From positions 1 through 43,597 of IMG/VR virus record IMGVR_UViG_2778261529_000002: 43,597 nucleotides of DNA, one strand, 5' to 3'. The translations under genes and the position numbers were made by a program. This document shows, one piece after another, positions 34,374 to 35,543 of this stretch; positions within the stretch are counted from its first letter, which is position 1, and every line of letters starts with the position of its first letter. The notes under the pieces were generated by a model that was not told the origin of the DNA, searched no databases, and saw nothing but the letters and a program-made list of their open reading frames with translations. The DNA is from a virus (Duplodnaviria > Heunggongvirae > Uroviricota > Caudoviricetes).

Positions 34374-34733
34374 ATGACAAAAATCAGCAATGTTATTTGC
34401 GGCGTAGCTTTAGCTTTAGCTTTTGTTGGTGCTTCGTCTGCTTTAGCGGACACTCAGTGTGGGCCTTTTCGTCTGACCGCAGGGAACGATGGTTTGATGC
34501 ACATTAACGGTGCAAAGCCTGAAAACCAGAAAATGACCTTTCTGAAAGAAAAGGAAGATTATCAAAATCTGAAGATGGAATGGACGGTTGCAACCAACCA
34601 GCCCGGCCGTTGGGTAGGGCTGGAATACATCAAGCGTAACGGTAAAGCCATTCTCAACGCCCAGTGGTTGCAAGCCAGTATGGACGCGCCGCGTCAGTAT
34701 GCGACTTATGACTGTAAGAGAGTTTCTAATTGA
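34374..34733 (+). CDS. Secreted hypothetical protein (119 aa; signal peptide with ALA-DTQ cleavage motif, two Cys); first gene of tail-module cargo operon
   Basis: ATG one nt after the baseplate hub stop; AT-rich; no family recognised. Confidence 0.65.
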   Translation: MTKISNVICGVALALAFVGASSALADTQCGPFRLTAGNDGLMHINGAKPENQKMTFLKEKEDYQNLKMEWTVATNQPGRWVGLEYIKRNGKAILNAQWLQASMDAPRQYATYDCKRVSN

Positions 34734-35287
34734 GCACAGGTAACCCTAAATCTGTAGCCCCTACCGACGATCAGAAAGAATGGATTGAGCGGGCGAAATT
34801 TGTTTTTGATTATCAACAAAAACAATATGAGTTTGCACTAACATCGTTACGTAGGTTAGAGGATAAAGCGACTAAAATTTTCGGTTCAATCAACGTCATA
34901 CTTACTATTTCTATGTTGATAGTTCGCTATTGGGATAGCTATATTTTTGTATCAGAAATTACTCCCCCAAGGGTTCTATGCTGGTTGTCACTGGCTCTGT
35001 TTTTTGTCTTTTTTCTTATTTCATGGGGATTTGTTTTTAGTGCAATGCAACCTCGTGAAGGTATGAGACCGGCAACCGATGCAAGTATTATCGACTTTTT
35101 TATGGGTAACCCGCGACAAAACTCAATGAGTTCATTTGCAAGTAGTTACACTGACTTCATTGATAAACTTGATGAAGTTCACAAAGAAAAAGTAGCCGTA
35201 ATACAGAAAGGTTCCGAAGCAATGCTTTTTGGGGCTTGGTCCTTCATTATCTTCCTGATAAGTTTTTTATTAATAAGATTTACATAA
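34730..35287 (+). CDS. Integral membrane hypothetical protein (185 aa, three hydrophobic helices); TTG start coupled to upstream stop
   Basis: No in-frame ATG before the first TM segment, so TTG overlapping the upstream TGA (TTGA) is the likely start; GC about 30-35 percent. Confidence 0.6.
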   Translation: MSTGNPKSVAPTDDQKEWIERAKFVFDYQQKQYEFALTSLRRLEDKATKIFGSINVILTISMLIVRYWDSYIFVSEITPPRVLCWLSLALFFVFFLISWGFVFSAMQPREGMRPATDASIIDFFMGNPRQNSMSSFASSYTDFIDKLDEVHKEKVAVIQKGSEAMLFGAWSFIIFLISFLLIRFT

Positions 35288-35295
35288 GGTGAAAT

Positions 35296-35508
35296 ATGAG
35301 TACTAAAAAGCCAGTCCATGCACCTAAAGATAACCTTGGGTTCATTAGAGAAAAGAAATCACATGATGGAGATTGTTATTCTCACAAAGAATTACCAGGT
35401 AACTCGGTTGAAAGGGAAGGATACGACTCATCTTTAACAGTTCCGCCTGGAAAGGTAGTATTTGAAAGCTTTGGTGGTAATCGCCCTGTTAATGTTAAAA
35501 GAAAGTAA
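35296..35508 (+). CDS. Small hydrophilic hypothetical protein (70 aa); third gene of cargo operon
   Basis: AAGGTGA SD 6 nt upstream of ATG; followed by a canonical terminator. Confidence 0.5.
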   Translation: MSTKKPVHAPKDNLGFIREKKSHDGDCYSHKELPGNSVEREGYDSSLTVPPGKVVFESFGGNRPVNVKRK

Positions 35509-35516
35509 CATCAAAT

Positions 35517-35543
35517 CTGACCCGCTTCGGCGGGTTTTTTTAT
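35517..35543 (+). terminator. Canonical intrinsic terminator (cccgc-ttcg-gcggg plus T7) closing the cargo operon
   Basis: Perfect 5-bp GC stem, TTCG tetraloop, TTTTTTT. Confidence 0.85.

Follow-up and report, generated by a model that had tools for sequence, protein, structure and literature searches.

The window analyzed here is a 43,597-nucleotide (nt) stretch of tailed-phage DNA (Caudoviricetes; IMG/VR record IMGVR_UViG_2778261529_000002, positions 1 to 43,597) whose source is an Escherichia coli prophage, and the genes under study are three small ones, g1, g2 and g3, that lie between its baseplate hub and baseplate spike genes. Judged from comparisons with related loci, this hub–spike junction is a conserved accessory-gene slot in a tail lineage of the Salmonella phage SEN34 or "STY1065" type. 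Only g2 and g3 are predicted to be acquired, AT-rich mobile cargo in that slot; g1 is separate from it. We favor a reading in which the slot is an expression platform and the g2–g3 pair a mobile, cyclase-independent module resembling toxin–antitoxin or abortive-infection systems, and we give this reading as a whole about an even chance of being right. The features on which the argument depends are as follows, with guanine-plus-cytosine content (GC) and its value at third codon positions (GC3) where relevant.

33308..34372, plus strand: baseplate hub gene, the conserved left flank of the slot; GC 0.533, GC3 0.628

34374..34733, plus strand: g1, 119 amino acids (aa), predicted conserved periplasmic protein; GC 0.469, GC3 0.483

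34716..34733, plus strand: left junction of the variable DNA, from DNA and protein alignments with E. coli relatives

34730..35287, plus strand: g2, 185 aa, with a TTG start that overlaps the g1 stop (TTGA); GC 0.371, GC3 0.323

35296..35508, plus strand: g3, 70 aa, hydrophilic and basic, with an AAGGTG Shine-Dalgarno sequence just upstream; GC 0.380, GC3 0.254

35519..35543, plus strand: intrinsic terminator (hairpin and T-run), the right boundary of the slot, directly before the Shine-Dalgarno sequence and ATG of the spike gene

35553..36191, plus strand: baseplate spike gene, the conserved right flank of the slot; GC 0.570, GC3 0.615

This anatomy was laid out in an earlier note made from the letters alone, and its gene lengths (119, 185 and 70 aa), the hub stop at 34372, the spike start at 35553 and the TTGA overlap are all present as it stated. 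Hydropathy analysis agreed with its description of a signal peptide and two cysteines in g1, three hydrophobic helices in g2 and a hydrophilic g3, and the terminator it placed after g3 was found at 35519–35543. RefSeq annotation of three other E. coli genomes has the same three coding sequences with the same boundaries. The spike gene product carries a Pfam N-terminal spike domain (E 2e-41) and a GpV Apex motif and is named "membrane-puncturing spike protein" in RefSeq. For the hub, the Pfam match to E217_GP41 ("Baseplate hub gp41"; E 9e-6, 25.5 bits) lies under the 27-bit curated cut-off and the NCBIfam match to orf58_phage_fam (158.9 bits) under the 170-bit cut-off; a homolog is labeled baseplate hub in phage records.

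When positions 33300–36600 were compared with complete E. coli genomes by megablast, the tail region was found in 52 genomes. The whole query was covered in only 4 records, with the middle missing in the others, and ten of these loci were then compared directly. In all 33 related loci that we compared, the gene order was hub, g1, a variable stretch of 68–1804 base pairs (bp), and spike, with hub proteins 53–100% identical across all related loci. The slot was filled in 32 of the 33, so the earlier view that nothing normally lies between hub and spike in such tails does not hold; the exception, a Rahnella locus (L021), has an empty slot that retains g1 and the terminator. About 20 unrelated families occupy the space between the 3′ end of g1 and the terminator in these 33 loci, among them Phd/Doc (Fic/DOC, E 1.5e-11), a reverse-strand DUF4236 gene, a reverse-strand EACC1-like gene, and single open reading frames (ORFs) of 106 or 181 aa that have no assigned identity. 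Accessory genes appear to use the same junction well beyond the enterobacterial clade; in Burkholderia phage Magia, for example, a reverse-strand gene sits between hub and spike.

Several loci contain further arrangements. A recurrent two-gene cargo, encoding a protein of 250–260 aa and then one of 131–165 aa, is present in L023 (5363-6524), L024 (5389-6542) and L027 (5179-6343). The second of these genes has an RxxxxH-like motif by eye and may be of HEPN type, and neither gene has a Pfam match. Loci L013, L023, L027 and L031 carry approximately 600–750 bp of extra DNA between the hub stop and the g1 start, and there may be a second insertion point upstream of g1 in these loci.

The gene that stays put in this slot is g1. 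Its product has a single hydrophobic 19-mer (residues 7–25) followed by the sequence ALA|D, consistent with a signal peptide spanning residues 1–25, and exactly two cysteines, C29 and C114, that are invariant in 59 homologs. Fold searches against the PDB indicated an eight-stranded beta-barrel of the calycin/avidin-like type. The protein matches PHROGs family phrog_3443 (E 1e-46), a family of unknown function, and yielded nothing in a scan of NCBIfam release 20 and nothing significant in Pfam or PADLOC. The identical protein WP_042043841.1 is called "STY1065/STY2022 family phage-derived protein" in one RefSeq genome and "hypothetical protein" in another. We detected 118 homologs across Enterobacterales. 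All ten E. coli loci have a gene of 115–119 aa directly after the hub that is 63–87% identical to g1 (one is a 5′-truncated pseudogene), and every related enterobacterial locus compared has a g1 that is 34–100% identical in this position, whatever the cargo and also with none. In L031, g1 is annotated as a 5′-truncated pseudogene. In a Pseudescherichia vulneris NBRC 102420 contig (L013, 1286-2849), three tandem g1 paralogs lie between hub and spike, which indicates amplification of the resident gene in one lineage.

Loci found through g1 homology are biased towards the presence of g1, so phage records were also searched independently with the hub protein. This found g1 in 20 of 23 records at hub identities of at least 51% and in 0 of 19 at hub identities below 40% (Burkholderia, Acinetobacter, Bordetella and others). 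In Hafnia phage yong1, the position of g1 is taken by an unrelated gene. Because g1 is kept alongside unrelated cargo or an empty slot, it reads as backbone rather than cargo, and because it is absent from yong1 and from distant relatives with the same tail layout, it does not appear to be an essential structural part of the tail. By these comparisons it is a clade-specific, near-universal accessory gene. The earlier note had proposed comparing homologous prophages, and had said that its reading would fail if the same genes were essential parts of all related tails. The comparison gives a divided answer: g1 is present throughout the enterobacterial clade and missing in yong1 and distant relatives, and g2–g3 are absent from nearly all.

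A structural or assembly role for the three proteins in the baseplate finds its support in the location of the genes inside the baseplate cluster and in the conservation of g1 within the enterobacterial clade. We consider it extremely improbable. The signal peptide and invariant cysteine pair of g1 indicate export to the periplasm, g1 is lacking in yong1 and in all relatives with hub identity below 40% that share the tail layout, and g2–g3 are missing from nearly all relatives. For g1 alone, T4 Spackle, Cor and Llp are analogs, being phage-encoded exported proteins whose genes lie beside tail-tip or receptor-binding genes. The likeness is one of export, phage origin and a gene adjoining tail-tip genes; no sequence or fold similarity to them was found, and g1 is a predicted calycin/avidin-like barrel and not a lipoprotein. 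The tape measure protein of this phage (window positions 30387-32396, 669 aa) has a C-terminal SLT lytic-transglycosylase domain, according to its RefSeq name and to Pfam SLT matches on homologs, and this domain works in the compartment that receives the exported g1 protein.

The terminator at the right edge of the slot (GACCCGC-TTCG-GCGGGTT followed by a T-run; folding z = −2.5) was kept in 35 of 36 distinct related loci with any cargo; the empty slot and yong1 have it too. In a 26-sequence alignment, four of its seven stem pairs show compensatory double changes. Because it is present whatever the cargo, even when the slot is empty, and because its stem covaries, we assign the terminator to the backbone on comparative grounds and not, as previously supposed, to the inserted DNA. 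A match to the Rfam Trp operon leader over window positions 35466-35543, at 28.5 bits against a gathering score of 41, is sub-threshold and can almost certainly be put down to the hairpin and T-run of the terminator.

What remains as cargo is the g2–g3 cassette. Its 823 bp of DNA occurred in 4 of 20,395 E. coli records, each time within this prophage, and thus in 4 of the 52 with the tail region; the rest of these 52 are otherwise syntenic relatives without it. Similarity to E. coli relatives stops in the last four or five codons of g1, right after the Cys114 codon. The GC of the cassette is 0.37–0.38 against 0.53–0.57 in the flanks, and its GC3 is 0.25–0.32 against approximately 0.62. The lower GC that had been reported for the whole insert is therefore real, but the change is graded from hub to g1 to g2/g3, with g1 intermediate (0.469 versus 0.371–0.380).

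The hub–spike slot also houses the cassette in Kosakonia, Rahnella and IMG/VR phages with hubs that are 53–100% identical, and the identity of g2 does not track that of the hub (hub 83% and g2 47% in one locus, hub 60% and g2 66% in another). Outside the slot, at least six further types of location have g2–g3 but no g1. In the nin region of a Citrobacter lambdoid prophage, a cassette that is 76% DNA-identical to one in the hub–spike slot lies between DUF977 and DinI/RusA/Q with no g1 nearby. A Mu-like prophage has the cassette between its tape measure gene and a gene for a DNA-circulation protein (Pfam DNA_circ_N). Other copies adjoin holins and a CI-like repressor or lie in transposase, integrase and SLFN/methylase islands, and small Acinetobacter plasmids carry relatives of the cassette beside replication or partition genes. 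The exact g2 sequence was present on 370 contigs and that of g3 on 365; a tblastn search of 50,697 phage records gave no match to g2.

These results bear on the earlier suggestion that g1, g2 and g3 were acquired horizontally as one envelope-targeted system. The genes do lie close together in one orientation, the stop codon of g1 overlaps the start of g2, all three have a GC below that of the flanks, and g2 starts 0–10 nt after g1 in every hub–spike slot with the cassette. Against this stand the retention of g1 with unrelated cargo or none, the occurrence of g2–g3 without g1 elsewhere, a stepped GC3 (0.48 in g1 versus 0.25–0.32 in g2/g3) and a similarity to E. coli relatives that ends only at the last g1 codons. 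We regard a single three-gene system as very unlikely; the part of the suggestion that survives is that g2–g3 are foreign cargo. Its view of the region as accessory, non-structural DNA of foreign composition that encodes a secreted protein, a membrane protein and a small partner is also borne out, and a defense or toxin–immunity role is a reasonable reading for g2–g3.

Relationships of g2 were harder to trace than its topology. Its three hydrophobic 19-mers (residues 47–65, 88–106 and 164–182) follow an N-terminal cytoplasmic helix with an RRLEDKAxK motif. AlphaFold2 predicted an all-helical structure with a predicted local distance difference test (pLDDT) score of 77.5, in which a long N-terminal helix continues into the first membrane helix, a second one follows, and a cytoplasmic segment leads to a long C-terminal helix that ends as the third. 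Two lysines, K46 and K154, are near-invariant among 117 members of the family and lie at the cytoplasmic helix ends. In PHROGs, g2 matched only families of unknown function, and 16 close protein homologs were found. A profile built from these 16 and run against 1.8 billion representatives recovered 180 proteins at E ≤ 0.001, nearly all of them stand-alone proteins of 160–250 aa that aligned end to end; the extra domains of longer relatives were not recognized by Pfam.

The family links g2 to PycTM, a Pycsar effector that impairs the membrane when cyclic cytidine monophosphate (cCMP) is made (PMC11224242, PMC12489823). The PADLOC PycTM model PDLC02364 was matched by 32 of 117 g2-family members, and two other PycTM models by 19 and 18. 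One protein, P0195, bridges the two groups: it is recovered by the g2 profile (E 3.9e-8) and by PDLC02364 (E 5.9e-8, positions 9–154 of 160, or 146/160), and it carries a precomputed Pfam PycTM annotation. Aligning the g2 family with the P0195 subfamily by hhalign gave 99.8% probability and E 9e-28 over 171 columns, although the two alignments are not independent, and it paired RRLEDKAxK with LDxKAS and HxEK with NxxKAK. Precomputed tables list the Pfam PycTM family PF18967 for P0005, P0006 and P0195.

We conclude from these profile relationships that g2 is a putative remote member of the PycTM superfamily and a predicted inner-membrane protein. Like PycTM, it is a stand-alone membrane protein of about 160–185 aa that aligns over its full length (the PADLOC PycTM models have 154–165 positions), with a lysine-containing motif before the first and last hydrophobic helices (PMC11224242, PMC12489823). 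Unlike PycTM, it has no adjacent cyclase, is followed by a conserved small hydrophilic ORF, and resides in prophage slots and on small plasmids rather than in two-gene cyclase operons. No pyrimidine cyclase (PycC) gene was found in the slot of the window or beside g2 relatives in any context examined. The earlier statement that none of the three proteins belongs to a described defense or structural family therefore holds for direct library matches of g1–g3 and gives way for g2 at the level of remote homology. The structure searches it had recommended returned the barrel fold for g1 and no solved relative for g2; it was profile comparison that tied g2 to PycTM.

In place of a cyclase, a small hydrophilic ORF with a Shine-Dalgarno-like sequence lies 1–11 nt after the g2-family gene in every context with downstream sequence. 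These partners are mostly 42–88 aa long and share the motif [YF]D[ST]S[IL]xVPxGKxVxE[SG][YF], in which one Glu is invariant in the alignment. In g3 the core of this motif is YDSSLTVPPGKVVFESF (pattern YDSS..VP.GK.V.E; residues 43–59, nt 35422–35472). On the Acinetobacter radioresistens plasmid pARA6 (L061, 2890-3150) and in L039, the place of the partner is taken by tandem, near-identical, proline-rich ORFs of 27–29 aa (MAEAKPEYVPPPPPVRDQ...), each with its own Shine-Dalgarno-like sequence and none of them annotated. The g3 protein has no hydrophobic 19-mer in hydropathy analysis, nothing significant in Pfam, PADLOC or NCBIfam, and only families of unknown function in PHROGs. Its strict pairing marks g3 as a predicted obligate partner of g2, and it is probably disordered and cytoplasmic.

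How these genes might be expressed was addressed through two further features.

34242..34270, plus strand: candidate sigma-70 promoter (TTTATA-17-TATACT) in the 3′ end of the hub gene, approximately 100 nt upstream of g1; its promoter role is putative

15787..16332, plus strand: lambda-type Q antiterminator gene (Pfam Phage_antitermQ, E 1e-24), with NinG and NinB upstream

The hexamers of the candidate promoter recur at the same place in most related loci. Since they lie within hub codons, we compared codon use in 17 diverse hubs, each less than 90% identical to the others. Among 20 conserved Tyr/Thr columns, the three with the highest share of codons ending in T are Tyr313 (TAT), Tyr320 (TAT) and Thr321 (ACT), and it is these that make up the hexamers. 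At Thr321, 14 of 16 hubs use ACT, compared with 6–35% ACT in other Thr columns and 1 of 17 at Thr324, and adjoining synonymous sites vary freely. This bias points to selection on the DNA sequence itself at the hexamers. The junction of the overlapping g1 and g2 genes held no convincing promoter.

Together with the terminator, this suggests a fixed expression platform consisting of a promoter in the 3′ end of the hub gene, g1, the cargo and the terminator. During lytic growth, late transcripts antiterminated by Q would extend past the terminator ahead of the spike gene. In a lysogen, the slot unit would be transcribed alone, stopping before the spike gene, and we infer its lysogenic expression from this arrangement.

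On this platform, g2 would act as a toxic membrane effector that g3 either keeps in check or switches on. Infection, or loss of the element, would then release membrane damage and so protect the lysogen population or stabilize the element. We favor this cyclase-independent module because of the PycTM homology, because a small partner always accompanies g2, because phages, islands and small plasmids all carry the cassette, and because Phd/Doc is present in the same slot of related phages; membrane toxicity of g2, a regulatory role of g3 and an anti-phage effect are what such an arrangement would predict. As in type II toxin–antitoxin pairs, g2 and g3 are two small adjacent genes separated by gaps of 1–11 nt. 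As in lambda RexAB and toxin–antitoxin abortive-infection pairs, they form a two-gene prophage module in which a membrane protein able to collapse the membrane would be joined by a cytoplasmic partner. They differ from these pairs in having no sequence relation to them and in the partner, which is 27–88 aa long, of low complexity and encoded downstream.

Several observations weigh against this interpretation. The link to PycTM is transitive, through a P0195 subfamily that the g2 profile had itself recruited; g2 has no direct Pfam, PADLOC or NCBIfam match; and a local hmmscan of Pfam-A found no PF18967 in 133 g2-family members (16 close and 117 distant) even at E up to 1, a discrepancy with the precomputed tables that we suspect reflects a difference in model version or library. 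Foldseek comparison of the g2 model with the PDB gave only generic long helices and no solved relative, and the g2 profile found nothing among PDB sequences. The partners are very divergent, with those of Acinetobacter and Moritella aligning only loosely, and a toxin gene followed by a small ORF is not the commonest order in type II toxin–antitoxin systems. On the side of expression, the candidate promoter is weak in a promoter scan (9 of 12 matches), and promoter-like sites in the region are not enriched over shuffled sequences. Lastly, Phd/Doc appears in the slot three times, and EACC1, a possible HEPN-type pair and the PycTM-like cassette are also present, but most other cargo has no annotation or recognized defense label, so a "defense hotspot" is not established.

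Other functions for g2–g3 have to be set against this module. If g2, with g3, mediated non-lethal superinfection exclusion, it would block DNA entry at the inner membrane in the manner of HK97 gp15 or T4 Imm. An inner-membrane protein of a prophage in an accessory position of the tail operon does recall HK97 gp15 (cited in PMC10884400), and the tape measure SLT domain of this phage acts in the envelope. However, the g2 family is homologous to a killing effector, and its small plasmids and transposon or integrase islands are places where entry exclusion directed at one type of phage is less expected. Searches of PADLOC, PHROGs function categories, Pfam and PDB folds also gave no relevant match of g1, g2 or g3 to the superinfection-exclusion proteins that are known (HK97 gp15, T4 Imm and Sp, Cor, Llp). 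Exclusion therefore seems unlikely to us.

The full-length homology of g2 to stand-alone PycTM models and its near-invariant K46 and K154 would also suit an orphan Pycsar-type receptor gated by cCMP, cyclic uridine monophosphate (cUMP) or another nucleotide from an unlinked cyclase, with g3 an accessory or an unrelated peptide. Such reliance on a gene located elsewhere is hard to reconcile with transfer of the cassette between genera, and what is conserved beside g2 in the contexts examined is the partner ORF and not a cyclase; we think this explanation quite unlikely. To counter-defense or pure addiction, in which g2–g3 would be a dominant-negative PycTM decoy or a post-segregational killing system with no anti-phage role, we assign a similarly low probability. 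Carriage by phages and by small plasmids beside replication or partition genes, and Phd/Doc in the same slot of relatives, speak for selfish maintenance, but addiction and defense are not exclusive, relatives of the cassette also lie in chromosomal islands with SLFN and methylase genes, and nothing indicates that the E. coli hosts have a Pycsar system for a decoy to counter. The cyclase-independent module remains the reading that we prefer.

The slot itself resembles the hotspots of P2 and P4 (Rousset et al. 2022, PMC9122126) in its conserved flanks and in cargo that is highly variable among close relatives and includes toxin–antitoxin genes. It differs from them in belonging to another phage lineage, in lying inside the baseplate cluster, and in that most of its cargo has no known defense annotation. 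With phage morons (Juhala et al. 2000; HK97 gp15; Pseudomonas Tab, PMC10884400) it shares extra genes amid conserved late genes, their absence in close relatives, a lower GC, a terminator after them and presumed prophage expression. Here, though, the terminator and the candidate promoter are conserved backbone and the slot also holds the resident g1, and we infer that the slot is less a self-contained moron than a fixed platform for the expression of cargo that can be exchanged.

Elsewhere in the window, the late region (19084-38775) shares 98–99% identity with a prophage that lies next to yfhH in E. coli AF20 and UPEC957C. The early region (1-19000) is entirely different, being lambdoid here (NinB, NinG, Q) and encoding a DNA polymerase, VapE and a BstA-like protein in the AF20/UPEC957C prophage, which makes for a clear mosaic junction near 19 kilobases on sequence comparison. 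At window positions 39900-40990, the near-identical prophage has a pinE-type invertase gene beside oppositely oriented tail-fiber segments, an arrangement that suggests a switch of host range by inversion where the tail cluster ends.

Morons, prophage hotspots and PycTM are already known. What appears to be new is a PycTM-superfamily protein without a cyclase that is paired with a conserved small partner, and a slot with a resident periplasmic gene, a conserved terminator and an embedded promoter-like site. No description of the cyclase-less pairing or of the slot was found in the searchable literature, which leaves out many subscription-journal papers, and it held nothing relevant on STY1065/STY2022, 8xMP or DUF5706.

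The slot is a previously undescribed hotspot in the baseplate cluster of a common prophage group of Enterobacterales, with hosts that include E. coli (among them urinary-tract and bloodstream isolates), Salmonella, Klebsiella, Serratia and Yersinia. Its flanks, the 3′ end of g1 and the ACCCGC/GCGGGT terminator, are easy to recognize and could be used to mine more unannotated cargo. The resident g1 protein is a conserved, predicted periplasmic barrel encoded beside the membrane-puncturing spike. A bolder form of our interpretation, which we put forward tentatively and consider rather unlikely, is that g2–g3 represent an undescribed, widespread family of defense or addiction systems in which a tiny, disordered, motif-bearing protein has taken over from nucleotide gating in the control of a Pycsar-type membrane effector, and that the slot is a "plug-in" expression platform exchanging such modules across enterobacterial myoviruses. 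The cassette is a compact two-gene unit of approximately 800 bp that can easily be tested. If it works as proposed, an effector of nucleotide-signaling defense would be controllable by a small protein instead of a cyclase, which would widen the range of triggers to which such effectors may respond.

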